In this document: one piece after another, positions 1-30,758 of the stretch | Numbering within the stretch: the first letter of the stretch is position 1 | Layout of the letters: each line of letters starts with the position of its first letter | NCBI GenBank assembly: GCA_036276755.1 | Contig: DASUOG010000018.1 | Span: forward strand, 1 to 52,700 | Reading direction: 5' to 3' | Length of the DNA stretch: 52,700 nucleotides | From: Candidatus Saccharimonadales bacterium | GTDB taxonomy: Bacteria; Patescibacteriota; Saccharimonadia; Saccharimonadales; 2-12-FULL-41-12 | Program-made: the position numbers and the translations under genes | The notes under the pieces: model-generated | The model's input: only the letters and a program-made list of their open reading frames with translations | What the model was told of the DNA's origin: nothing | The model's database searches: none

Positions 1-657
1 CCCAGTCCTTATATGTACTATATACATTTCGGGAAGCGCGAAGTCTTCGGTGCCAGTCCGGAATTGGTGGTGAGCTCGATCGACGGAAGCGTGTTGACGA
101 CGCCTACGGCCGGTACCGTCCGCCGCGGCAAGGATGAAAAAGAAGACAAGGAGCTGGCTCGCAGGTTACTGAACGATCCGAAGGAGCTGGCCGAACACGC
201 GATGCTGGTGGATCTGCACAGGAACGACATATCCAAAGTTTGCAAGTACGGTTCGGTGAAGGTCTCAGAACTGATGCATCTTATCAAGTTCAAATACGTG
301 CAGCATATCTGCAGCGACATCGTAGGCGAGTTACGACCGGATAAGAACAGCTTCGATCTTTTGAGCGGCATAATGCCCTGCGGCGTCCTGACCGGAGCGC
401 CCAAGATTGAGACGATGAAGATAATCGCGCGTAACGAGCAATATCCGCGCGGCCCGTACGGCGGCGCGGTAGGGCGCTTCAGCTTCAACGGTGACTGTGC
501 GTTCGCTATGCCGATACGCAGTCTTTTCTGCGGGGGAGATAACTGCTATAACCAAGCGTGCGGCGGCGTAGTTTTCGATTCGGTTCCGGAGGAGGAATAT
601 GACGAAATAGTAGCAAAACTCACCGGTATGGAACAGACGATAAAGGATGTAACATGA
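1..657 (+). CDS. trpE: Anthranilate synthase component I, C-terminal part (5' end lies outside the window)
   Basis: Frame is open from base 1 (PSPYMYY). Chorismate-binding motifs ASPE, PTAGT, KELAEHAMLVDLHRND, LTGAPK, RGPYGG; overlaps the trpG start and precedes trpD/C/F. Confidence 0.93.
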   Translation, partial: PSPYMYYIHFGKREVFGASPELVVSSIDGSVLTTPTAGTVRRGKDEKEDKELARRLLNDPKELAEHAMLVDLHRNDISKVCKYGSVKVSELMHLIKFKYVQHICSDIVGELRPDKNSFDLLSGIMPCGVLTGAPKIETMKIIARNEQYPRGPYGGAVGRFSFNGDCAFAMPIRSLFCGGDNCYNQACGGVVFDSVPEEEYDEIVAKLTGMEQTIKDVT

Positions 658-1286
658 AGATCCTAATCATTGACAACTACGACAGCTTTACTTACAACCT
701 TGAGCATCTGTTCGGGGCTTTGCCCGATGTATCGGTCGAAGTGGCGCGGAACGACGATGATTTTATACCGGAGCTGGAAAGCGGACATTTTGAAGGAGTG
801 GTCATCAGCCCCGGTCCGGGCAATCCTACCGACGAAAAATATTTCGGCCGGAACATGGAAGTAATTTCCCGTTTCGGCCCGGCCGGGTTGCCGATTTTAG
901 GAATCTGTTTAGGGTTTCAGGGGGTAGCAGCCGGGTTCGGAGCCACCCTCAAAGAAGCTTCTTTGCCCCACCATGGCAAGACCTCCGTACTCAAACTCTT
1001 AGGAAAAAGTCCGATCCTAAAAAACGTACCCGATCACATAAAGGTCATGCGTTACCATAGCTTGATGATCGATACGGACAAACCTTTGCCGGACGAGCTT
1101 TTGATACTGGCCGAAACCGATCCGGATTCGCTGAGCGTGCAAAAGAACGGCCGGGAAATCATGGCTCTGGAGCACAAAAGATACCCGATCTACGGCCTGC
1201 AGTTCCACCCGGAAAGTTACGCGACCGAGCTTGGTGACATCATCGCCGGCAACTTTATTAATATCATAAAGGGAAGTGGCAAATGA
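654..1286 (+). CDS. trpG: Anthranilate synthase component II (class I glutamine amidotransferase)
   Basis: IDNYDSFTYNL, ISPGPG, ILGICLG, MRYHSL, QFHPES; ATGA overlaps with both neighbours. Confidence 0.95.
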   Translation: MKILIIDNYDSFTYNLEHLFGALPDVSVEVARNDDDFIPELESGHFEGVVISPGPGNPTDEKYFGRNMEVISRFGPAGLPILGICLGFQGVAAGFGATLKEASLPHHGKTSVLKLLGKSPILKNVPDHIKVMRYHSLMIDTDKPLPDELLILAETDPDSLSVQKNGREIMALEHKRYPIYGLQFHPESYATELGDIIAGNFINIIKGSGK

Positions 1287-3499
1287 GAATCGTTGAATTT
1301 CTAAAAAAGACCGTGGCCGGCGACCTGTCCTTGGACGAACAGAAAGAATATCTTAGACAAAAGCCTTTCGGCAGTGCCGAGGAAATAGCCGAGGCGGTCG
1401 AATACTTGTATGAACAGATGGCCGAAGTCCCGAAACTGGAAGACGGGGTAGATATTTGCGGCACCGGGGGTTCCGGTCTGCCAAGGCTGAATACCAGTAC
1501 CATCAGCGCGTTCATCCTGGCCGGAGCCGGAGTAAAGGTCGCAAAGCATGGCAATAACGCGGCCAGTGGGAATTTCGGAAGTTTTGATTTGCTCAGCGCA
1601 CTTGATATACCGATAAACCTATCGTCTGAGCAGCTTCAACTCAGGTATAACAGATATAATCTGGCATTTTTGTATGCCAAGAGCTTCCATCCCGCCATGC
1701 GGTTTTTTGGACCGGTCAGATCGGAGATGGACAAACCGACTTTCTTTAATATCTTAGGGCCGCTGCTTAGTCCGGTGAAGGCAAAGAGACAACTTATCGG
1801 TACTACGAGATTGGAATATGCTCGGATTATCGCTGAAGTTTCAAGGATATTGGGCAAAAAGCGGGTAGTGGTAGCCGTGGGCAGCGACGGATTGGACGAA
1901 GTTACATTGTGCGGGCGTACGCACGTCGTAGAGTTAGATGACGGCAAGATTAAAGAATATGAACTAAACCCTGCTGATTTCGGGATCAAGGCGGCGCGCG
2001 ACTTTTCCGAAATAGCTACCAAAGACCCCGAAGATAATATCCGGATTGCGAACTTGATTCTGGACGGCAAGGAAAAAACCCGCCGGACGGATTTGGTACT
2101 GGTGAATGCGGCATTGGCACTATATGTCGCCGGTAAAACCTATGATTTGCGCGAAGCTTATAAACTGGCCGAACGTACGCTTAAAACCGGCAAAGCCAAG
2201 GAAATCCTGCAAAATTATCGTCTGCCGAGCGCGCTAGCGAACATCGCAGCCCGCGATAAGAAACGAGATTTTACCGCCGCCGGCAAATTGCCGGAAGCCG
2301 GCAAGAGATACTCCGGCGGCCTGATTGCCGAAATAAAACGTGCCAGCCCCAGCGAAGGGCTGATAAATACCACGATAGACATAGCCGAACAAGCCCGTTT
2401 GTATGAGCAGGCGGGGGCTTCGGCGATCAGCGTGTTGTGCGAACCAGAAGACTTCGGTGGCAGTTTCGAAGATTTGAAGCTGGTCAGGAAGACGGTCAAC
2501 CTACCTTTGTTATGTAAGGATTTTATCTTCAGAAAAGAACATATCTACAAGGCGAAATCCTCCGGTGCGGACATAGTGCTTTTAATAGCGGCCATCTTGG
2601 ATGAAGAACAGCTTTTCAAGCTCCATGATTATGCTAAGAGCCTAGGGCTGCAATCGATAGTGGAGGTTCACGACCGAAACGAGCTGCGAAAAGCCCTGAA
2701 ACTGAAACCGGAAATTATCGGGGTCAATTCCCGAAACCTGCATGACTTTTCCCTCAATCCGGAAATCTTTACCGAACTGGCTAAACATATTCCGGCCGGT
2801 ACTGTAGCGATCGCTGAAAGCGGCATCGGCGGTTATCGGGACATCCCGAAGGATTACGAAGGCGTCCTGGTCGGAACCGTGCTTATGAAACACCAGTTTC
2901 CGCAGCTGAAAATCAAGGAACTTACCGGCCGGCCGCTTTTGAAACTGTGCGGTATGCGAAGGACGGAAAACGCCAAATTATGCGAAAAACTCGGTGTGGA
3001 TATGATCGGAATCAATTTCGTATCGCGCAGCCACCGCCAAGTATCAATCGAGGAGGCCAAACAACTCGTTGCCGCTTGTGATAACACTATCCCGGTCGGC
3101 GTGTTCGAAAACCAGACCCCGGAGGAAGTCAATGAAATCGCCAAGAAAACCGGTGTCAGGGCAATCCAGCTTTCCGGAGAGGAAAAAGATTTGCAAAGCT
3201 ATAACTTGCCAATTATCAAGACCGTAAGGCTTGGCGAAAAGCGGCCGGACGGAGCATTTTTGACCATAATCGACAATTCCATAGCCGGCTCTGGCAAAAA
3301 AATAGATCATAGCAAGTTAGAAAAGTTCGAACCCAGCCTGATCGCCGGCGGCATAGATTTAGCGACAGCTGAAAATTTATTTAAAAATAAATTCCCCCTG
3401 GGTATTGATACGGCGAGCGGGATCGAGACCGACGGTAAAGTGGATCCCGGCAAGCTCAAAGCGATGAGCGCGCTAGCCGCCTCCGTTAAATATGAGTGA
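1283..3499 (+). CDS. trpD: Trifunctional fusion: anthranilate phosphoribosyltransferase (TrpD) + indole-3-glycerol-phosphate synthase (TrpC) + phosphoribosylanthranilate isomerase (TrpF)
   Basis: One 738-aa ORF. TrpD motifs DICGTGG, NTST, VAKHGN, DGLDE; TrpC motifs IAEIKRASPS, LCKDFI, VEVH, GVNSRNL, AESGI; TrpF motifs LKLCGM, VGVF, IQLSG, IAGGI, GIDTASGIE. Confidence 0.92.
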   Translation: MRIVEFLKKTVAGDLSLDEQKEYLRQKPFGSAEEIAEAVEYLYEQMAEVPKLEDGVDICGTGGSGLPRLNTSTISAFILAGAGVKVAKHGNNAASGNFGSFDLLSALDIPINLSSEQLQLRYNRYNLAFLYAKSFHPAMRFFGPVRSEMDKPTFFNILGPLLSPVKAKRQLIGTTRLEYARIIAEVSRILGKKRVVVAVGSDGLDEVTLCGRTHVVELDDGKIKEYELNPADFGIKAARDFSEIATKDPEDNIRIANLILDGKEKTRRTDLVLVNAALALYVAGKTYDLREAYKLAERTLKTGKAKEILQNYRLPSALANIAARDKKRDFTAAGKLPEAGKRYSGGLIAEIKRASPSEGLINTTIDIAEQARLYEQAGASAISVLCEPEDFGGSFEDLKLVRKTVNLPLLCKDFIFRKEHIYKAKSSGADIVLLIAAILDEEQLFKLHDYAKSLGLQSIVEVHDRNELRKALKLKPEIIGVNSRNLHDFSLNPEIFTELAKHIPAGTVAIAESGIGGYRDIPKDYEGVLVGTVLMKHQFPQLKIKELTGRPLLKLCGMRRTENAKLCEKLGVDMIGINFVSRSHRQVSIEEAKQLVAACDNTIPVGVFENQTPEEVNEIAKKTGVRAIQLSGEEKDLQSYNLPIIKTVRLGEKRPDGAFLTIIDNSIAGSGKKIDHSKLEKFEPSLIAGGIDLATAENLFKNKFPLGIDTASGIETDGKVDPGKLKAMSALAASVKYE

Positions 3500-10628: not shown

Positions 10629-11747
10629 ATGGAAGGTTCGTTACCCGGAACTCTCTTGTTACCTCCAGAAAGGCAAGCGCAGACAGACATTGATTGCACT
10701 GTCGGAGGAGTCGCCTTAAAGTGTGTCGCTTCCAATGTCAGACGGACTGATCTTCCTTGGGAATCATATGAATTGACAACCGGCCTTGGCGGAGAAGGTA
10801 ACCTGGTCGTCGTGGAAGCGATCTCTGATGATGGTTTCCGAACCGAGGTGGAAAGCCAGGCAGGACGCGATGAACGCATCTATGCAGGCGATAAACTCGT
10901 AACTGTTTTAGCCAACCGGCATTCAGGCACTTCCGAATCAGGGTATGTACCTGAAGAAGGTCTGGAGATTACCGAAGAAACCGAACTTCATTTGCTGGCT
11001 GCCGGCTGCGTAGTCGGTATAAATTCGGGTATGCCTGCCGGTGCCCGTGAGCCGATGAGGTTCAGATCGCTCGGACTGGTATCTGATGAACAAGGCCCCG
11101 TCGACCTTATCGATATATGCGGTGGGCATGATTCGGCACCCGATACTTCGGCGCCGGTCATCCTTGTCTGTGGCACCAGCGCAGAAGTCGGGAAGACAAC
11201 AAGTTCGATCCGGCTTATACGCGCCCTGGCAGACGAAGGTTTACGGGTGGCCGGTACGAAATTTTCCGGAACCGGCCGGATGCGCGACATATTAAGTCTT
11301 CGCGACGCCGGTGCTCGACCGGCATTGGATTTCCCTGAGGTGGGTTTGGCTACCACGTACACTTCTCCGGAACGCTATATCCCGAGTATGTATACGCTTT
11401 TCAATTATCTCAACGACGACAACCCCGATATTATAGTCGCTGAAGCCGGCGGTGATCCGATTGAAGCCAATATACCTACTTTTCTGCGGGACGAACGTCT
11501 GATGGAACCGGTAGTAGCCGCGGTACTGGTCTCGGGAGACGTTATGGGTATGATGGGGGCTATCGATTACCTTCGCAAACATGCTCCCGAACTGCCGATT
11601 TATTTGACGGAGCCCAAAGGCAGGAATCCGACTACCACCCGTGAGCGGGTTGCCAATGAATTGCCCGGATTTACTCTTTTTAACTCGCTTGATCGCTCGG
11701 CAGTATCAGCAGTGGCAAAAGAAATAATCGGGGAGTTGCGGCCATGA
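10629..11747 (+). CDS. DUF1611-like P-loop protein; first gene of the phosphonate operon
   Basis: GDKLVTVLANR, HLLAAG, VCGTSAEVGKTT (P-loop), KFSGTGRMRD, LDF.E.G..TTY; stop overlaps the pepM start. Confidence 0.7.
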   Translation: MEGSLPGTLLLPPERQAQTDIDCTVGGVALKCVASNVRRTDLPWESYELTTGLGGEGNLVVVEAISDDGFRTEVESQAGRDERIYAGDKLVTVLANRHSGTSESGYVPEEGLEITEETELHLLAAGCVVGINSGMPAGAREPMRFRSLGLVSDEQGPVDLIDICGGHDSAPDTSAPVILVCGTSAEVGKTTSSIRLIRALADEGLRVAGTKFSGTGRMRDILSLRDAGARPALDFPEVGLATTYTSPERYIPSMYTLFNYLNDDNPDIIVAEAGGDPIEANIPTFLRDERLMEPVVAAVLVSGDVMGMMGAIDYLRKHAPELPIYLTEPKGRNPTTTRERVANELPGFTLFNSLDRSAVSAVAKEIIGELRP

Positions 11748-12655
11748 AACGGAAAACCAGAAAAGTCCTGACGAATCCGCGGGTCGGGAAATTGCGCGAG
11801 CTGATAGCTGCCAAAGATATCGTAAGATTGCTTGAAGCCCATAACGGCTTGACCGGACTTGTAGTTGAAACCACCAGAATCAGCAAAGGCGGCAAAGACG
11901 TAGGCTTCGATGCCATATGGGAAAGCAGTCTTACCGACTCCGCCTCCAAAGGCAAGCCGGATATTTCCGTAGTAGATATGACTTCTCGCATGCAAACTAT
12001 CGAAGAAATCATGGATGTAACGACCAAGCCTGTAGTAGTCGATGCGGATAATGGCGGGTTGACGGAGATTTTCGGTTTTACCGTTCGCAGCCTTGAACGT
12101 ATCGGTGTATCAGCGGTCATAATAGAGGACAAGACAGGCAGAAAACGCAACTCACTTTCCTCCGCCGATGTGATTCATAAGCAGGATTCCATAGAAAACT
12201 TCAGCGATAAGATAGCTTTTGGCAAAAGAAGCCAGCAAAGCGATGAGTTCATGATTATCGCGCGTATCGAGAGCCTGATTTTGCGAAAAGGCTTGGCTGA
12301 CGCCCTGGCACGTGCCGAAGCATATATAAACGCGGGTGCTGACGGCATCCTGATCCACAGCAATGCTAGGAATCCGGAAGAAATATTGAGTTTCTGCAAG
12401 GAATACAAAAAGTTCTCTGATATGGTACCGTTGGTAACTGTTCCAACCAGCTATAATTCCATAACCGAGCCGGAGTTGATAGATGCTGGCGTAAAAGTAG
12501 TGATTTATGCGAACCAGTTGTTACGCAGCGCATATCCGGCTATGACATCCGCTGCTAAACTTATCCTGCAGAACGGACGATCGCTTGAAACCGATAAATT
12601 GTGTATTCCGGTATCAGAACTTTTAGAACTAATACCGTCTTCCACGGCAGAGTAG
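11744..12655 (+). CDS. pepM: Phosphoenolpyruvate mutase
   Basis: EAHNGLTG, WESSLTDS, DADNGG, diagnostic EDKxxxxxNS (EDKTGRKRNS), IARIESLI, IYANQLLRS; phosphonopyruvate decarboxylase directly downstream. Confidence 0.95.
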   Translation: MKRKTRKVLTNPRVGKLRELIAAKDIVRLLEAHNGLTGLVVETTRISKGGKDVGFDAIWESSLTDSASKGKPDISVVDMTSRMQTIEEIMDVTTKPVVVDADNGGLTEIFGFTVRSLERIGVSAVIIEDKTGRKRNSLSSADVIHKQDSIENFSDKIAFGKRSQQSDEFMIIARIESLILRKGLADALARAEAYINAGADGILIHSNARNPEEILSFCKEYKKFSDMVPLVTVPTSYNSITEPELIDAGVKVVIYANQLLRSAYPAMTSAAKLILQNGRSLETDKLCIPVSELLELIPSSTAE

Positions 12656-12660
12656 GGACC

Positions 12661-13779
12661 ATGAAAGTTGCCGAGCTTACGGATCTGCTTATAAAGGAAG
12701 AATTGACTTTTCTGACGGGTGTCCCATGCAGCTATCTCAAGGAATTGCTCGGCACTCTGGATGGTCGGACTGATTTACAGCACGTAGCGGCCAGTAGCGA
12801 AGGCGAAGCGGTAGGAATAGCCGCTGGTTATCATTTGGCAACCGGCAGAGTACCTGTAATATATTTGCAGAATTCCGGCTTGGGAAATGCAATTAATCCA
12901 TTGACTTCGCTGTCGGACAGGGAGGTTTACGGCATTCCCGGCATACTTTTTTTGACCTGGCGCGGCGAACCCGGCAAACCCGATGAGCCCCAGCACAAAA
13001 AGATGGGCCGCATAATGCCCGATTTATTGGAAGACCTGGAAATAAATTATGGTTTTGCTGACAGGGATATTGTCAAAACCACCGAAACTGTCCGTCGTTT
13101 AAAAGCCGAATCCCTTTCCGCGAAAAAGCCGGTTGCTTTGATTTTCCGTCCGAAGCTTATAGAAAAAACTGAAGCAACCCCCGGAATCTTAAATGCTAAG
13201 TTTATGAAACGCGAAAAAATCTTAAAGCTGCTGTTGCCAAAGATCGGTGAATCGCCCCTTGTAACTACTACCGGCAAAACTTCGCGAGAAGTGTTTGAAC
13301 TACGGGAAAAAAACGGCCAATCACATCAACAGGATTTCTTGACTGTCGGTTCAATGGGATGTGCCGCAGGTATCGGACTGGGGATTGCCCGGCAGACCTC
13401 TAAGAGAGTTTTTGTGATAGACGGCGACGGAGCGGTGCTTATGAAAATGGGCACTCTGGCCACGATCGGTCATTATAATCCGGAAAACCTGATACATATA
13501 GTAATAGATAACGGAGCTTATGAAAGTACAGGCAGCCAGCCGACCGTCGCCAAAAACTTAAAGTGGCGGAAGTTATTCAACGGTTTCGGATATAAAACGG
13601 TTCTGATTATTCGCACCCAGGACGCTCTGAAATCCCTTGAACTTGAAAAGATCAAAGGCCCGGCGGCCGTCGTTGTATATTCGCGGAGCGGATCTCGACC
13701 GGATCTTGGCCGTCCGACTACCGGACCCGGGTATAACAAACGGCAATTTATGAATTTTTTGGGGGTGAGCGATGAGTGA
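12661..13779 (+). CDS. aepY: Phosphonopyruvate decarboxylase (ThDP-dependent)
   Basis: GVPCS, EGEAVGIAAGYHLATG, YLQNSGLGN, WRGEPG.PDEPQH, TTGKTSRE, DFLTVGSMG, DGDGA. Start set at ATG 12661. Confidence 0.95.
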   Translation: MKVAELTDLLIKEELTFLTGVPCSYLKELLGTLDGRTDLQHVAASSEGEAVGIAAGYHLATGRVPVIYLQNSGLGNAINPLTSLSDREVYGIPGILFLTWRGEPGKPDEPQHKKMGRIMPDLLEDLEINYGFADRDIVKTTETVRRLKAESLSAKKPVALIFRPKLIEKTEATPGILNAKFMKREKILKLLLPKIGESPLVTTTGKTSREVFELREKNGQSHQQDFLTVGSMGCAAGIGLGIARQTSKRVFVIDGDGAVLMKMGTLATIGHYNPENLIHIVIDNGAYESTGSQPTVAKNLKWRKLFNGFGYKTVLIIRTQDALKSLELEKIKGPAAVVVYSRSGSRPDLGRPTTGPGYNKRQFMNFLGVSDE

Positions 13780-15127
13780 GCACGCCGAATCTCAGTTAAG
13801 AGCTGCGGCCGAGGATTTTTTTGCGACACTTAACTTGGATCCCGCCGAGAAACGGCGCATTTTTTCTGCCGTCGTATCCGACGTTAGGGACCGTCGTGAA
13901 GAATTGGCAGATTTGGCAGTTAGCGAAGTTAAATTGACACGCGTAGATGCTCGCAAAGAGATTGATCGCGCGTTAAACACCTTCATCCGGGCGAGAGACT
14001 CGGCCGATCTTATCCAGGAATCCACGTTTAGCTTGGGCGATGAGAAAATTGCTCGCGAAAAACGGCTCCCAAGGGGGCCGCTCCTAGCCATTACACCGTT
14101 TAGTAGCCCCTTCAGCTCGCCGGCTCACAAAATAAGCATGGGTATCTTAGCCGGTACGTCCGTTTTGTTCAAGCCGTCGCCTTTTGCCCGGCAAAGCGGG
14201 CGGGCATTATATACGATCATCGAAAAAGCGTGCGATGGAAAGTATGTATATTTTTCTGCTGAAGATGATCGGAGGCGTCTCGATTCTATAGTAGCCGATT
14301 CGCGTATTGGGATCGTTTCATTTACCGGCAGCTACTCCACTGGCAGCAGAATTATCAAGAACGGGGGCGTAAAACGGTACCATATGGAGCTGGCAGGCGG
14401 TAACTCACCGATAATATTCGCACCGGAATTTGATCGGTATGACGACCGGTTGGCTGGGGATATAGTCGACGGTATAACCGCTAAAAACGGACAGCGTTGC
14501 GTGTCGGTCAAACATTTGTTTATACCGGCTGGGCGCAGGCAATTCATAGATAAGCTACAAAGCCGGCTTGAACGGCTGAAGAACCACACCAGGGAACGGC
14601 CGGATAACGGCGGAGATCTCAAGCTTGGTCCGCTTATCACCGAAAAATATGCCAAACAAACAGCAAAAAAGGTAGGGAGCATCTTAGAATTGACCGATCA
14701 GGCCGACACGCTTATAGCATTGGAACGACGCAGGGATTATATTTTTCCCACTCTTTATGCAATCAAAAAAATTGACGAGCCTTTCATCCGTAACATCTTT
14801 GATTTTGATATTCCTGGGCCCGTAGCCTTCATTCATCTTTATAATTCACAGGCCGAATACGAAAAAATCCTTTCCGCGCTCAAACGGGATTATACGCGCT
14901 CGGGATTGCAATTGTCCTTTTACGTAGCTGACAAAATTTCGGCGGATAACATCATAAAAAATCTATTATGGGGCGGAATTATCTTTAATGATTTGCCGAC
15001 TTATCGCGATGAATCCATGTCGTTCGGTGGTTTTGGCAAATCAGGTCTGGGCAAAGAAGGATTTCCCGAAACACTAAATTCAATTACCGATCCACAAGTG
15101 GTAGTTTATCCCAAAGATTTTGTTTGA
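13772..15127 (+). CDS. Aldehyde dehydrogenase, probable phosphonoacetaldehyde dehydrogenase (PhnY-like)
   Basis: AITPF....AHK, FKPS, SFTGS, MELAGG, NGQRC (catalytic Cys), FGGFGKSGLGKEG; overlaps the end of aepY. Confidence 0.82.
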   Translation: MSEHAESQLRAAAEDFFATLNLDPAEKRRIFSAVVSDVRDRREELADLAVSEVKLTRVDARKEIDRALNTFIRARDSADLIQESTFSLGDEKIAREKRLPRGPLLAITPFSSPFSSPAHKISMGILAGTSVLFKPSPFARQSGRALYTIIEKACDGKYVYFSAEDDRRRLDSIVADSRIGIVSFTGSYSTGSRIIKNGGVKRYHMELAGGNSPIIFAPEFDRYDDRLAGDIVDGITAKNGQRCVSVKHLFIPAGRRQFIDKLQSRLERLKNHTRERPDNGGDLKLGPLITEKYAKQTAKKVGSILELTDQADTLIALERRRDYIFPTLYAIKKIDEPFIRNIFDFDIPGPVAFIHLYNSQAEYEKILSALKRDYTRSGLQLSFYVADKISADNIIKNLLWGGIIFNDLPTYRDESMSFGGFGKSGLGKEGFPETLNSITDPQVVVYPKDFV

Positions 15128-25068: not shown

Positions 25069-26046
25069 TTATAATTTCCGTTCGACCCATCTTGGCATTT
25101 CCATTTCGCCTAATAACTGACCGAGCCTTTGCATCTGTTCAGTATTGTCTGCAAAAAAGCCTCCTTGCACCAGCTTAGACTCATCGAGTCCTTCTTGAGC
25201 TACCTTAGACTGGAATACAATCTGTCTAAGCATAGAATAAATGCGGAAAATGTTTAATAAGTCAGGATTTAGCTGATATTTTCTAGATTCTTCATAAGCT
25301 TGTATCAGTGTATCTACTACGGCTTTATTATGGTGTGACCAATCCATAAGCTTTACAAAATCTTTCTCAGGAGGGGCTATTACAGCCGAATCCCAATCTA
25401 ATAAACAAATCCTGCCAATAGGACGCAGTATCATATTTTTGAAATGAGCGTCATTGTGCACCAGAACCAATGAACTCTCTGCCGCCTCTATAGTAGGCAA
25501 GTATTTCGTAAGAAATGCATCTATACTATCTGCTTCATAACCTGCATCTATCGCGGTTGACTTGAAATCTTTCACAAAACTTCCAGACCAGCTTACTTCT
25601 GGGTCGGATTTTTTACCTTCAACGAAGTCGAGGTAGTTGCTCGCGCCGTTGGATGGCACATGAACATCGGCCATTAGCCGACCGACACTCTCAGCTATTT
25701 CATCATCTAAAGCTAACTTATGTAAAAGTGTACCTTCAACGAATTCGGATATAAGTAGTTGAGGCCGTCTTTTATCATCGGCATATAAAACAGCGGGGAT
25801 ATCAACAATGCCTAGACTTTCTATGAAAGGTTCCTTAATGCACTCTTCATACCAAAACTCTGTTGCGGTGCGATAGCGAACACAACTTTTGCCACCCTCT
25901 GTATCTGCCACAACAACAATGGTATTTTGCCTACCGTCATGTATAAGTTCTGCACTGGCCACCTCTACGCCTAGAAGAGAACTGCAATCTGTTGCAGCAA
26001 TAGCTTCAAATTGCTTTGCCCGTTCAATGTCTGCTGGAGCACTCAT
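25069..26046 (-). CDS. Aminoglycoside phosphotransferase / choline kinase (APH) family kinase
   Basis: GRQN.I loop, IP.VL, LISEFVEG, LVHNDAHFKNMI (Brenner motif), LLDWD, P.KD. Confidence 0.85.
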   Translation of the reverse strand: MSAPADIERAKQFEAIAATDCSSLLGVEVASAELIHDGRQNTIVVVADTEGGKSCVRYRTATEFWYEECIKEPFIESLGIVDIPAVLYADDKRRPQLLISEFVEGTLLHKLALDDEIAESVGRLMADVHVPSNGASNYLDFVEGKKSDPEVSWSGSFVKDFKSTAIDAGYEADSIDAFLTKYLPTIEAAESSLVLVHNDAHFKNMILRPIGRICLLDWDSAVIAPPEKDFVKLMDWSHHNKAVVDTLIQAYEESRKYQLNPDLLNIFRIYSMLRQIVFQSKVAQEGLDESKLVQGGFFADNTEQMQRLGQLLGEMEMPRWVERKL

Positions 26047-26273
26047 ATATATCCTTAATTCATTTATTATGAAGCGATATCTATCTATAAGTAAAGTATT
26101 ATTTTGAAGCCATACAATTTAGATCGATGTGTAATACATATTATACTATTTTTTAATATCTGTCAAATTTTTGCTTATGTATTAATATTTTTTGTATTCT
26201 TCATACTTCTCAAGATTTCTAAAAATATTAAAACTATTAATAAATAATCTGAAGGGTGATGTCGAATATTTAA

Positions 26274-27641
26274 TTAAATTTTCGATGCCACACGAATAGC
26301 ATTTGCCGCTAAAGATAATGTTACATTTGCTCCGCCTGATGTAGGCATAAATGACGCGTCAATAACAAATAAGCCTTCACAGTCATAACTCATGCAATTT
26401 GGATCAAGAACCCCGGTACTATAATCCAGCCCAAACTGCAGGCCACCATGCACATGAGTTGAGAGGTAATTCCTAATATCAACTCTATGTTCCAATGTAT
26501 TCTTATCGTAACCAAGTTTTTCTAAAAAAAATAACATTTTTTTGAATGCTCTTTTTCTAAGCTCGATATCGTGAACATGCTGTTTGTAATGTATAGCCGG
26601 AATAGGCACACCGCTATTATTAACAAATCTGGAAAGGGTTACACGATTTTCCATTAACGGCATGGCCTCCCCTTTAAAATTGATTTGAACAACATACTTC
26701 TTTTTTTCTTGATTAAGTCTATCTAGAGAAAAATTAGACTTTATTATTTCTTCTTTTCTTTGTTCTTCACCTTTAAAAAATAATCTGTCAGAAAAGCTAT
26801 ACTTACCACTTTTAATAGTGGTTGCCGTTGAGGATTCGTATTCATCCATGTATGCCAAAGTGAAGATATTTCTTTTCTGAGGTGTCCTGTCTATGTCTAC
26901 GATTGCCCGAACATACATATCCGTTAGAAAGGTGATCTTTCTCCCGACCAAACCGTTCTTACCTAACCCTGATAGCAAAAAAAGTCTTATCGACTCGAGA
27001 GTTGAGCATCCTAAAACAACAATTTTAGAGCTTAAGCTGAACTCCACTCCAGTTTTGTTGTCTATACAATAGACACCAGTAACTTTTCCATTCTTGTGCT
27101 GCACTTTAGCAACCTGGGTATCAAAGTATTCTGTAACTTGATTTTTTGTAGACACCAGTCCATACAAGTTTGCAGGTTTGCCATCAACTTCCGAGGTCGC
27201 TATATGCTCGGTATTAATATTGTGCTTGCGTAGTTTTTCAGCTATTTGCGATTCAAACTTGGTTGCACTTATTGCCGGCGTTTTAAGAAACTCATATGCT
27301 TTAGGGTAGTAGCGATTAAATATCTTGTAGCTAACACACCAGTTATCAAGAATCGCACCCGAAACTCTGCTATCGTTCTTGAAAGTACCTAAATTAAAGT
27401 CCAGTTCCGACAATTCCACTAGATGCCCGTGCCAAGCCTGTGTCGTGCCGCCTTTTCCCGCTCTGAGCCATTTCTGCTCATGTTTAATATTATTAAATTC
27501 AAATTCAGGTACATGCATTTGGGTGCTTGACCCATTTTCAATCACTGCGATCTTATGAGATGGGTGTAATTTGCTATATTCATTAATGAAAGAACTTGAA
27601 GACGCTCCAGTACCCACTATTACAATATCGTAATCTACCAT
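26274..27641 (-). CDS. GMC family FAD-dependent oxidoreductase
   Basis: YDIVIVGTGASS, GGTTQAW, ESIRLFLLSG, NRVTL, H.HGG, GVLDPNC...GLFVIDASFMPTSGGANVTL. Confidence 0.88.
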   Translation of the reverse strand: MVDYDIVIVGTGASSSSFINEYSKLHPSHKIAVIENGSSTQMHVPEFEFNNIKHEQKWLRAGKGGTTQAWHGHLVELSELDFNLGTFKNDSRVSGAILDNWCVSYKIFNRYYPKAYEFLKTPAISATKFESQIAEKLRKHNINTEHIATSEVDGKPANLYGLVSTKNQVTEYFDTQVAKVQHKNGKVTGVYCIDNKTGVEFSLSSKIVVLGCSTLESIRLFLLSGLGKNGLVGRKITFLTDMYVRAIVDIDRTPQKRNIFTLAYMDEYESSTATTIKSGKYSFSDRLFFKGEEQRKEEIIKSNFSLDRLNQEKKKYVVQINFKGEAMPLMENRVTLSRFVNNSGVPIPAIHYKQHVHDIELRKRAFKKMLFFLEKLGYDKNTLEHRVDIRNYLSTHVHGGLQFGLDYSTGVLDPNCMSYDCEGLFVIDASFMPTSGGANVTLSLAANAIRVASKI

Positions 27642-28471
27642 CTAAAAGACTCACATATATAGGTAGGAATATCTAAGGATCTGCCCTTAATGGTTTCGCA
27701 GAGTTTGTTCGTACTATTATCTAGCATGTTAAAATTGTCAAAAGCTGCGCCAGTAGTCACTAGAAGTGTATCAAAACCTTGGGTAAATGCGCCTACGCAA
27801 TCAGAAAAATATTGATCGCCAATTGCAAGAACCGTTTTTGGGGAATTAATTTTGAATTTATACATACAATGCTCGTATATGTATTTTTCTGGTTTACCAA
27901 AATTAACAACTTGCCCTCCATTTGACTCATACTTGTGACATATTTTGTCAAGGCCTTTAAAAATACCATTTGTTCGTACGGTACTTTTATCTCTAGTAGG
28001 CACTATTAAGGGTATGTTTTTGTTTATAGCAGCTTTCATCCAGTAGTCATGGACTGAAATTTCGTTCTCTGGCTTAACTCTTAACAACACTACGGCATCA
28101 GAATCTTCTACATTTTCAACTTGCCTGTTAATTATATTCTCCACTACTGACAAGTCTTCGTCTTCAGCCACAAAGTACACCTTGCGAAATTCTTCATCGT
28201 TTTGCATATGCATTGTCAGCATATCCGCCGATGTAAATACATCACTGAATAAGCTAATATTGCAATTGAGATTAGCCATTAAATTTTGATTGGTTCTTTT
28301 ATTTCTGCTGGAATTGGTGATAATAATTGAATGTTTTTTATTAGCTTTAATGTTTTCAAGACATTCATTCACACCCTCATACAAGTTGTTGCCGTCATGG
28401 ATTACGCCCCATTGATCTATTAGCAAATAGTCGTAATTTTGAATAATTTCAGATATTCCGGATATTATCAT
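27635..28471 (-). CDS. HAD subfamily IIA hydrolase
   Basis: IDQWGVIHDG, ITNSSR, GKP...IY, IGDQ..SD..GA, LVTTG. Confidence 0.88.
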   Translation of the reverse strand: MIISGISEIIQNYDYLLIDQWGVIHDGNNLYEGVNECLENIKANKKHSIIITNSSRNKRTNQNLMANLNCNISLFSDVFTSADMLTMHMQNDEEFRKVYFVAEDEDLSVVENIINRQVENVEDSDAVVLLRVKPENEISVHDYWMKAAINKNIPLIVPTRDKSTVRTNGIFKGLDKICHKYESNGGQVVNFGKPEKYIYEHCMYKFKINSPKTVLAIGDQYFSDCVGAFTQGFDTLLVTTGAAFDNFNMLDNSTNKLCETIKGRSLDIPTYICESFRW

Positions 28472-29534
28472 AGTTGTCGTTTACAAATTTATTGATTAAT
28501 TTAGTGAGTTGGTGCATGTGATGTTCTTTCGAAGAAATCGAAACTCGGAAGAACCCGGCTGGCATATCATGTCGGTCAAAGACTTTTATAATTAATTGAT
28601 TGCCTAAAAGGTAATCGTACATAGGTTCAACCGTTCGAGGGTCTGTCTTACACAGTATGAACGACGCTTTAGATTGATACGCTTTTATTTTATTTGCAAT
28701 AGTGGGGTGGGTTAGGTTTCGGTGCGTATGGTTTTTTAAGTCTATTACTTTGGTAATTTTTTGTAAAAAAACTTCATCGTATCTTATGCATTCGGATGCG
28801 ATAAGATCAGTAAGAATATTATTTCCTAAATAATTGTCAAATATCTTTAATTCCTTAGCAAATTCGTGTCCTATAAATGTATACCCCACTCGTAATGCAG
28901 AAATGCCATATAGCTTCGACATGGACCTGCAGACTGAAATATTAGGGAAACGCCTCATGAATTTTGTCGGATTATAGTCAGAATCAGTGAAACAAATGTA
29001 TGTTTCATCAATGATGAATAGTGCAGAAGGAAATTCTGCTACGATTTCATATACCGCCCTTACGTTTGTAAACCCACCAGTAGGATTCGATGGGTTGTTA
29101 ATTATGACTAATGGTCGTTTGCCTTTCGACAAGATGCTTATTATGTTCTCTTTGAGGGAGTCAATGTCTAGTTTAAATAAACCGGATACGTCATCTACTG
29201 AGTAGAATCGCGGTTCATGACCATATTTTGAAGATAGAACTCGATAATAACCCCAGGAATATTTTGGAAGTAGGAGTTGGAGATTGCCGTCAATTGTGCG
29301 AGAAAATGCGGATAGAAGAAAATCCTCGACCCCATTTGATATATGGATTTCGCTTTTTGAACAATTGTATTTTTCAATCAGAGCCTTTTCCAGCCTTAGC
29401 TCTGTGTTGTAAATACTGAAGTTTATATTATTTCTTTCTATAAGATCCGAGACACTGAAAGGTAGGTCGTTGTGTAACTCATTTCTTGATAAATCTATTG
29501 CTTTTGGATTTGTTTGCCGATTGATTCTGTTCAT
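28449..29534 (-). CDS. PLP-dependent class I/II enzyme, HisC/CobD-like (aminotransferase or decarboxylase)
   Basis: IDLSRNE, SNG.ED, NNPSNPTG, IIDETY, RSMSKLYGISALRVGY (PLP lysine), FRVSI. Confidence 0.88.
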   Translation of the reverse strand: MNRINRQTNPKAIDLSRNELHNDLPFSVSDLIERNNINFSIYNTELRLEKALIEKYNCSKSEIHISNGVEDFLLSAFSRTIDGNLQLLLPKYSWGYYRVLSSKYGHEPRFYSVDDVSGLFKLDIDSLKENIISILSKGKRPLVIINNPSNPTGGFTNVRAVYEIVAEFPSALFIIDETYICFTDSDYNPTKFMRRFPNISVCRSMSKLYGISALRVGYTFIGHEFAKELKIFDNYLGNNILTDLIASECIRYDEVFLQKITKVIDLKNHTHRNLTHPTIANKIKAYQSKASFILCKTDPRTVEPMYDYLLGNQLIIKVFDRHDMPAGFFRVSISSKEHHMHQLTKLINKFVNDNYDNIRNI

Positions 29535-29536
29535 TA

Positions 29537-30619
29537 TTAACCAAGATTCATTATTTTATCTCTTTTAATCAGCTTGCTTTTGGCTCCGAATCTTTGAACG
29601 TAAAGGTACCCAGGCTTACATGGATTAACGGCATCCTTCAATGAAGGCGCGCTATTGAATGTCTCGATGTACAATTTTGGAAAGTTCAGGCCCAAAAGCG
29701 CTAAGAAGTAAGTTGAAGTAAAAAACCTGCTTGCCTGGATCTCTGTAACAGCAGGATGTCCATTGTCATCAACTAAGTAGTCGATTCCCATTGCGCCGTT
29801 AACTGACCCGAATGACCTCACTACTTTGTCAGAAAGTTCATGAATATAATCATTTGATACTGTCATATTTGCCCCTGTGTATCCAGTTACTCCCGACACT
29901 GCTAGGTCTGAATGCTCCCAGTAAAGCCTCTTTCTTACTTGACTTGCAATAAGCTCATTGTCTTTATATAGCGCAATCCACGAAACCATCTCGCCTGGTA
30001 GTAAGTCGTCGCTTAAACGCTGTTTCCAAGAGTAGGACTCCTTTATGTCGATCCTTTTTGACACCAAATAATCGCCCCAGCCATTTCTTTCATCTAGTAC
30101 ACTAGAAATTACCGCCACACTATCTGCTCTAAAAGACCCCTTCCCACCTTGTCCACTTTTTGCTCGTATCCAAAATTCGTTGGAGCTTATATTTCTAGAA
30201 ATATCGTACAGCTCTTCAACATTATTTGGTAAACCGGTATATGGAGCATTAAACCCTTTTGCAACCAGATGACGATAAGTAAGGTACTTATCTTCGTAGA
30301 TAACAATTTGCTTATGCGTCGGCAGAAACACAGGATATTTATTCCTATGCTTAGAATAATCAAGCATATAGTAGTCAGATTTAGATTGATAAGTTAGGTC
30401 AAAGTCAACATTTGATTCTTTTCTGGCAATGTCGATTACTTTTGAAGGATATTGATTTTGGGCTTCAGACACGTAAATATTGTGGTCAACTTCTGATAGT
30501 AAAGATCGAATACGATGAGTCGAGGTACCGTAAATTTTACAATCAATCGCTGCATGTTTTAAACAAGATACAAAATTACTGCCAGAAGATTTATCTGAAT
30601 TCAGAACTAAAATGTTCAT
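29537..30619 (-). CDS. ATP-grasp fold carboxylate-amine ligase (CarB-like, single domain)
   Basis: DKYLTY..L...G...P.T, WIRAKSGQGGKGS, GIDYLVD..G.P.VTEIQA.RF. Start set at MNILVL (alternative TTG 30637). Confidence 0.8.
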   Translation of the reverse strand: MNILVLNSDKSSGSNFVSCLKHAAIDCKIYGTSTHRIRSLLSEVDHNIYVSEAQNQYPSKVIDIARKESNVDFDLTYQSKSDYYMLDYSKHRNKYPVFLPTHKQIVIYEDKYLTYRHLVAKGFNAPYTGLPNNVEELYDISRNISSNEFWIRAKSGQGGKGSFRADSVAVISSVLDERNGWGDYLVSKRIDIKESYSWKQRLSDDLLPGEMVSWIALYKDNELIASQVRKRLYWEHSDLAVSGVTGYTGANMTVSNDYIHELSDKVVRSFGSVNGAMGIDYLVDDNGHPAVTEIQASRFFTSTYFLALLGLNFPKLYIETFNSAPSLKDAVNPCKPGYLYVQRFGAKSKLIKRDKIMNLG

Positions 30620-30758
30620 CTTAGTCAGTACCGTCAAGTAAAGAGACTTTTGGATTATCGTATGTCATAAGCCTCTTTTGGCCATATATTAAGAAGCTTT
30701 ACTTCTTTAATCCTACCTAAGGGAATATCGGCCATAATTTATTAACATTATATAGTAT

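Follow-up and report, generated by a model that had tools for sequence, protein, structure and literature searches.

A compact phosphonate operon in a Patescibacterium with a predicted phosphonoacetate:L-aspartate ligase

A branch of phosphonate biosynthesis leading to phosphonoacetate is already known and, according to Li and Horsman 2022, accounts for 6% of ppm neighborhoods (PMC8942020). In Streptomyces sp. NRRL F-525, as described in two reports, a PepM-Ppd-PhnY-like route is followed by attachment to an amino acid, giving O-phosphonoacetic acid serine (PMC8942020, PMC12723261). The kfp cluster of Kitasatospora fiedleri DSM 114396 has been shown genetically to produce a phosphonate (PMC12723261). 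Here we describe a four-gene operon of a Candidatus Saccharimonadales bacterium (Patescibacteria), located at 10629-15127 on the + strand of the window, i.e., the whole 52,700-nucleotide stretch of contig DASUOG010000018.1 that was analyzed. It encodes a P-loop protein, a phosphoenolpyruvate (PEP) mutase (PepM), a phosphonopyruvate decarboxylase (Ppd), and a divergent aldehyde dehydrogenase (ALDH). The operon is real and intact, and no smaller version was seen in this widespread, uncharacterized family of clusters.

We lean, if only slightly, toward a reading in which the P-loop enzyme uses ATP to ligate phosphonoacetate to aspartate, yielding N-phosphonoacetyl-L-aspartate (PALA), and in which aspartate carbamoyltransferase (ATCase), where present, provides self-resistance. 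PALA is known as a synthetic compound. Under the name sparfosate, it is an ATCase inhibitor that was taken into phase II trials as an anticancer drug (PMC8508918). Neither a natural pathway to PALA nor a link between pepM and PALA or ATCase was found in the literature searched, which included few subscription papers, and in the supplement text of Li and Horsman neither the Pfam families at issue nor carbamoyl terms turned up. If the reading holds, a clinically tested product of rational drug design would also be a natural product, made from PEP by four enzymes, and an unnamed P-loop family would gain a function. It would also predict the product core of the K. fiedleri and Streptomyces sp. MMG1121 clusters and make a reduced-genome Patescibacterium the producer of an antimetabolite. 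Because the cassette is compact and PALA can be had as a standard, testing the claim would be cheap.

The P-loop protein gene (10629-11747) encodes 372 amino acids in two domains and is overlapped by 4 nt by pepM (11744-12655). After a 5-nt gap, ppd, which encodes a single chain, runs from an ATG at 12661 to 13779 (a longer start, GTG 12601, is probably not the true one), and the ALDH gene (13772-15127) overlaps it by 8 nt. The tight coupling of four genes claimed in the original prediction was therefore confirmed, as was an intact EDKxxxxxNS motif in PepM (EDKTGRKRNS at residue 128), the protein scoring 373.7 against a TIGR02320 cutoff of 319.55. Ppd scored 413.3 against a TIGR03297 cutoff of 312.5 and carries the thiamine diphosphate motif DGDG...DN at residue 254. 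An EDK-motif PepM with a neighboring Ppd is the signature of PepM-based phosphonate clusters; by Pfam, no reductase or cytidylyltransferase lies beside the cassette, which does not classify as a surface-phosphonate cluster of the 2-aminoethylphosphonate (AEP) or hydroxyethylphosphonate type. The source genome (893 kb, 91% complete) holds a single pepM, and its best score for AEP transaminase TIGR03301 was 35 bits against a cutoff of 360.8. Within the limits of the assembly, then, no genes elsewhere complete an ordinary AEP pathway, in keeping with what had been predicted.

Oxidation of phosphonoacetaldehyde would fall to the ALDH, which had been described as resembling PhnY. This was right in part, because the enzyme is divergent: the AHK motif (residue 118), the NGQRC motif (residue 239), and an Arg triad bear it out, whereas the score against the PhnY model TIGR03250 (121 bits; cutoff, 635.65) does not make the protein a PhnY, nor are PhnY residues Asn158 and His159 retained. 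The ALDH of a relative, locus L020, passes the same model with 724.5 bits and was used as a bridge for residue mapping through its alignment to PhnY of Sinorhizobium meliloti (PDB 4I3T). By this mapping, R66, E206, R242, C243, and R412 are equivalent to PhnY R108, E254, R290, C291, and R447, which we take to be the phosphonate-binding Arg triad and the catalytic Cys and Glu (numbering and roles presumably as in Agarwal 2014). All five are kept in 42 to 43 of the 43 members of a family with at least 41% identity to the query, the next matches being at most 31% identical. PhnY E385 and F387 are replaced by Asp and Pro. The modeled protein is a complete ALDH fold (TM 0.84 to PhnY 4I3X), with about 24% identity to PhnY and some 40 N-terminal residues fewer. 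Judged by these conserved residues, the ALDH likely oxidizes phosphonoacetaldehyde.

Searches of the P-loop protein against Pfam, NCBIfam, and PDB sequences gave weak CbiA, DUF1611, and BioD matches and no function. The DUF1611 (PF07755) match reached 24.6 bits against a cutoff of 25 and covered residues 172-216 only, and the dethiobiotin synthetase BioD model TIGR00347 gave 18.6 bits (cutoff, 83.3); a viral fold library returned nothing specific, and phage records returned no match. In the AlphaFold2 model (pLDDT, 93.9), the C-terminal domain is of the dethiobiotin-synthetase/DUF1611 type with an intact Walker A. The best match was TM0796 (PDB 2G0T; Z 17.6, rmsd 2.7, 178 residues aligned), essentially tied with CTP synthase (Z 16.6), dethiobiotin synthetase 1DBS (Z 16.5), and DUF1611 protein 2OBN (Z 16.1), and identity to solved structures is 13-19%. 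Walker A (G182...G188-K189-T190), K211, and E272-x-G-G-D276 are invariant across 55 homologues, and K211 aligns with K37 of Escherichia coli dethiobiotin synthetase. The N-terminal domain consists almost entirely of beta strands in the model and, within searches of the whole protein, matched unnamed clusters only; the N-terminal domain of DUF1611 proteins is Rossmann-like. The earlier label "DUF1611-like" is thus borne out by the C-terminal fold; the sequence match is weak, lying just under the cutoff, and the N-terminal domain belongs to no named family.

In dethiobiotin-synthetase/CTP-synthase-like enzymes, ATP phosphorylates an oxygen, which an amine then displaces. A homologue with 27% identity (locus L199, 9264-10295, − strand) lies in a Patescibacteria arginine operon together with argG, argF', argC, argD, argB, and a desuccinylase-like gene, and is a candidate alternative ArgA. 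From such operons, GapMind 2026 predicts an N-succinylglutamate synthase, which it describes as remotely related to the D-glutamate acetyltransferase reported by Yu et al. 2023 (10.1101/2024.10.14.618325). Succinate would be a close analogue of phosphonoacetate. Dethiobiotin synthetase, DUF1611 proteins, D-glutamate acetyltransferase 7XRJ, and the GapMind synthase share the P-loop C-terminal fold, and the dethiobiotin-synthetase-type K15/T16/K37 positions are also found in the window protein; 7XRJ was absent among the fold matches listed for the model. With the GapMind synthase, the window protein would further share N-acylation of an acidic amino acid, a likeness drawn from fold and operon setting and not from sequence identity. 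The window protein appears to differ from these proteins in its N-terminal domain, and it differs in its setting, where phosphonate genes and ATCase replace biotin or arginine genes. Among other members of the wider family, P0336 is a 939-amino-acid fusion of P-loop, methyltransferase, and TauD portions, and distant homologues at L103 (2936-6508), L077, L078, and L081 lie beside M20 hydrolases, one of them with a knotted YgeW carbamoyltransferase.

For the neighborhood survey, 160 loci were gathered from two listings (best 80 of 153 and best 80 of 155), leaving 148 loci after 12 duplicates and two loci from the source genome itself were removed. A pepM or ppd gene accompanies the P-loop gene in 54 of the 148, spread over many phyla, and the four-gene order of the window recurs in five other loci; the P-loop gene and pepM thus occur together elsewhere, as the prediction required. 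These 54 phosphonate loci also carry ALDH (39 loci), ATCase (30, or 31 with L039), TauD (27), M20 amidohydrolase (10), and TauE (9). Where at least 3 kb of flank was available, ATCase was near 23 of 39 phosphonate loci versus none of 28 distant nonphosphonate loci. In a quick tree, the window P-loop protein is sister (support, 98) to that of locus L006, where the same set of four genes is preceded by an ATCase 67 bp upstream. The original prediction had left the acceptor open and had missed these carbamoyltransferase neighbors, which point to aspartate as acceptor and ATCase as target.

All seven ATCase-type neighbors scanned passed TIGR00670, and the aligned cluster ATCases retain R54, K84, R105, H134, Q137, R167, R229, and Q231, the residues of the aspartate site among them, a few copies being altered in the carbamoyl-phosphate loop. 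Each of seven genomes checked, that of L006 and six others, has a second ATCase besides the cluster copy; in the L006 genome, this second copy sits with carAB and pyrC. One clade (99/97), separate from the other ATCases of their hosts, unites 30 distinct cluster ATCases, which come from Actinomycetota, Pseudomonadota, Bdellovibrionota, Acidobacteriota, and Patescibacteria. Four Patescibacteria cluster ATCases fall outside this main clade and group, with weaker support, among enzymes of the housekeeping type, and a plasmid pyrB (below) lacks the insertion of the clade and is nearest to E. coli PyrB; the ATCase was therefore probably recruited more than once. The pepM link was rebuilt too, since P-loop proteins 57-59% identical to the window copy are paired with PepMs of just 32-33% identity (L007, L086). 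At L033 (1-5165), from a Nanobdellati archaeon, pyrB and a pyrI-like gene stand directly upstream of pepM-ppd-ALDH-P-loop, and at L003 the P-loop gene adjoins carB. The L038 genome has a single listed ATCase (L240, G833:C3); it shares 51% identity with a cluster-type ATCase but lies away from the phosphonate genes.

A candidate determinant of acceptor choice lies in the loop after K211, where the window protein has R217 and R219. All 37 ATCase-linked P-loop proteins have R217 together with Arg or Lys at 219, while ATCase accompanies none of nine phosphonate loci without the Arg pair (six of these with 4 kb of flank); the pair has been lost on several branches of the P-loop tree. From this pattern, we infer that R217 and R219 may hold the aspartate carboxylates. 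A plasmid search for the P-loop protein gave three records; in each of the top two, which were examined, a carbamoyltransferase gene accompanies pepM and ppd, with no ALDH listed. On the first, pepM, ppd, TauD, and pyrB accompany the P-loop gene, pyrB abutting it. On the second, pepM and ppd are joined by M20, two ATP-grasp genes, and an ornithine carbamoyltransferase (OTC; the best-scoring family, although below its cutoff), and the P-loop protein has Cys/Glu at 217/219. This cluster (L227, Priestia megaterium plasmid NZ_CP085446, 8805-17493) also includes an LLM monooxygenase, lies between IS6 elements, and is a candidate pathway to phosphonoacetylated ornithine (PALO) or a PALO peptide. No OTC was found beside any of the 54 phosphonate loci.

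The proposed pathway would begin with conversion of PEP to phosphonopyruvate by PepM and of phosphonopyruvate to phosphonoacetaldehyde by Ppd, both assigned by family membership. The ALDH would then produce phosphonoacetate, as suggested by its three conserved Arg residues, its catalytic Cys and Glu, and the PhnY-type enzymes that occupy the same slot in relatives. Finally, an acyl-phosphate would form at the Walker A/K211/E272 site of the P-loop enzyme and be converted to an amide with the amino group of L-aspartate, held by R217 and R219, to give PALA. The route to phosphonoacetate, with the P-loop protein likely activating or ligating it, had been anticipated and is supported. In the larger clusters, a spare ATCase and the M20 amidohydrolase would protect the producer, whereas the Patescibacterium has the four-gene core alone. 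PALA would work as an antimetabolite, hindering pyrimidine synthesis in a host or a competing organism. A broader proposal is possible but on balance doubtful: that PALA and, in a sister cluster, PALO, both textbook synthetic bisubstrate inhibitors, are natural products of bacteria and an archaeon, made by a new ATP-dependent ligase family whose choice between aspartate and ornithine depends on Arg217/Arg219 or Cys/Glu and matches the carbamoyltransferase duplicated for self-resistance, the window cassette being the minimal four-gene version with which a Patescibacteria symbiont throttles the pyrimidine synthesis of its host.

Several observations weigh against PALA as the product. The loci are related, so locus counts overstate independence, and for the same reason no weight is placed on Fisher p values. 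Among the 47 phosphonate loci whose P-loop protein has the Arg pair, 15 show no ATCase in view, and the pair also occurs in the nonphosphonate homologues L049, L077, and L078. Many 430-amino-acid Burkholderiales ATCases, considered by sequence, fall in the main cluster ATCase clade. In eight genomes of loci lacking ATCase, one ATCase or none exceeded the cutoff. The Patescibacterium itself has one ATCase only, with no spare copy in window or genome, and tblastn found no cluster-type M20, TauD, or TauE in that genome, which thus has no visible self-resistance or exporter even though carAB, pyrB, pyrC, and a pyrD-like gene mean that it has the target. Its own pyrB was considered as a resistance copy and ruled out, since five of five congeners carry one. 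Among the partner PepM-like proteins, EDN, EDS, or EDQ replaces EDK in 8 of 52, and 11 gave no motif match. In the ALDH family, Ser111-Ser112 stands in 43 of 43 members where PhnY has Asn158-His159. The characterized D-glutamate relative is described as an acetyltransferase and not an ATP ligase (10.1101/2024.10.14.618325). Lastly, five metagenome-assembled genomes (MAGs) have a close P-loop homologue and no detectable pepM, with ATCase adjacent in three, a pattern that fits decay or scavenging and also a protective role for the P-loop protein. L004, L019, and L022 each have an intact P-loop gene accompanied by ATCase, in MAGs where pepM went undetected.

These points bear differently on the alternatives. 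The same ligase logic could serve another acceptor, such as glutamate, ammonia (giving phosphonoacetamide), ornithine (PALO), or serine (O-phosphonoacetic acid serine). Fold neighbors CTP synthase and dethiobiotin synthetase use other amines, OTC is the partner in one cluster, acylation of glutamate is predicted or reported for relatives, and the known product of a PhnY-type cluster is the serine ester. Yet the window protein has the Arg pair of the 37 ATCase-linked copies and not the OTC-linked Cys/Glu, and sister locus L006 carries ATCase in a set of 54 loci free of OTC, which makes a different acceptor unlikely. Improbable as well is a P-loop kinase that releases phosphonoacetyl phosphate for an ATCase, of the cluster or the organism, to transfer to aspartate, making that enzyme biosynthetic and not protective. 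Such a role would fit the frequent placement of ATCase right beside the P-loop gene (40-200 bp in 14 loci), its retention there when pepM is missing, and the changes that a few cluster copies show in the carbamoyl-phosphate loop; however, four of the five same-order loci and the window have no cluster ATCase, and PALA would block its own maker.

Still less credence goes to phosphonoacetate as end product, with the P-loop protein protecting against it or modifying it, a scheme that includes the earlier suggestion of an antiviral pyrophosphate mimic. Phosphonoacetate weakly inhibits ATCase at the carbamoyl-phosphate site, and P-loop genes persist with ATCase or M20 where pepM is missing, as protective genes would. 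The M20 neighbors (10 of 54) instead suggest an amide product, and relatives in the family are predicted or reported to N-acylate acidic amino acids. The antiviral idea found no support, as no defense-type family was recurrent among annotated neighbor clusters, although no defense library was scanned. Least probable of all, in our estimate, is a productless remnant left after loss of a resistance gene, or a pathway that an inactive ALDH halts at the aldehyde stage. Decayed versions do exist in Patescibacteria, at L014 (frameshifted P-loop gene) and L241 (truncated pepM), the oxyanion-hole Asn of the ALDH is replaced, and the cassette was not found in 60 relatives; against this, the four open reading frames (ORFs) are intact and coupled, and Ser-Ser is fixed in 43 of 43 ALDHs with the catalytic Cys and Glu conserved, which indicates selection. 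PALA synthesis therefore remains the reading we prefer.

Among described systems, the kfp cluster (K. fiedleri, Streptomyces sp. MMG1121, and 31A4) has the same PepM, Ppd, and ALDH core as the window, although it comprises 25 genes, including ATP-grasp, TauD, CysDNC, and transporter genes, where the window has four. Table S6 of its supplement lists PyrB as kfp15 and a 349-amino-acid hypothetical protein, kfp06, at the P-loop position, while the main text does not mention a carbamoyltransferase (PMC12723261). MMG1121 is our locus L041, on the contig cited in that supplement, and carries a P-loop homologue of 41% identity together with ATCase; its ORF lengths agree with kfp06, kfp07, and kfp15. 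By position and length, and not by sequence, kfp06 would be a P-loop homologue. The NRRL F-525 product is an ester to serine, unlike the aspartate amide predicted for the window.

The cassette was found once among 61 relatives and once among 401 genomes of the class, in each case in the source genome only. The P-loop profile matched 6 of 401 genomes of the phylum, the phosphonate type occurring in only 2, compared with 11 of 401 for a pepM-like gene; the P-loop gene is thus not a general companion of pepM. In a congener, the flanking ABC, glyoxalase, and IMPase genes lie within 9 kb without the cassette, consistent with gain or loss in a variable region. Read depth is even over the cassette and its flanks in the probable source sample, a soil metagenome, a check that is not independent. 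Scans for promoters, terminators, and repeats found nothing above chance, nor was an insertion scar found. Upstream, yjbQ ends 97 nt from the cassette, and an ABC pair convergent with it lies 11 nt downstream; this pair was rejected as a cassette member, being present without the cassette in the congener and in none of the phosphonate loci.

Elsewhere in the window, a low-GC island at 25069-30637 (− strand; 36-39% versus about 48%), 10 kb from the cassette, encodes an ATP-grasp protein, a HisC-like aminotransferase, a HAD-IIA protein, a GMC oxidoreductase, and an APH-like kinase. It looks like a second small-molecule cluster; the island had no homologue in the phosphonate loci. Tryptophan genes with a fused TrpD-TrpC-TrpF occupy 13-3499, and other contigs of the genome (C25, C5, C10, and C34) carry an arginine operon and the pyrimidine genes carAB, pyrB, pyrC, and the pyrD-like gene, a biosynthetic repertoire that is rich for a 0.9-Mb genome.

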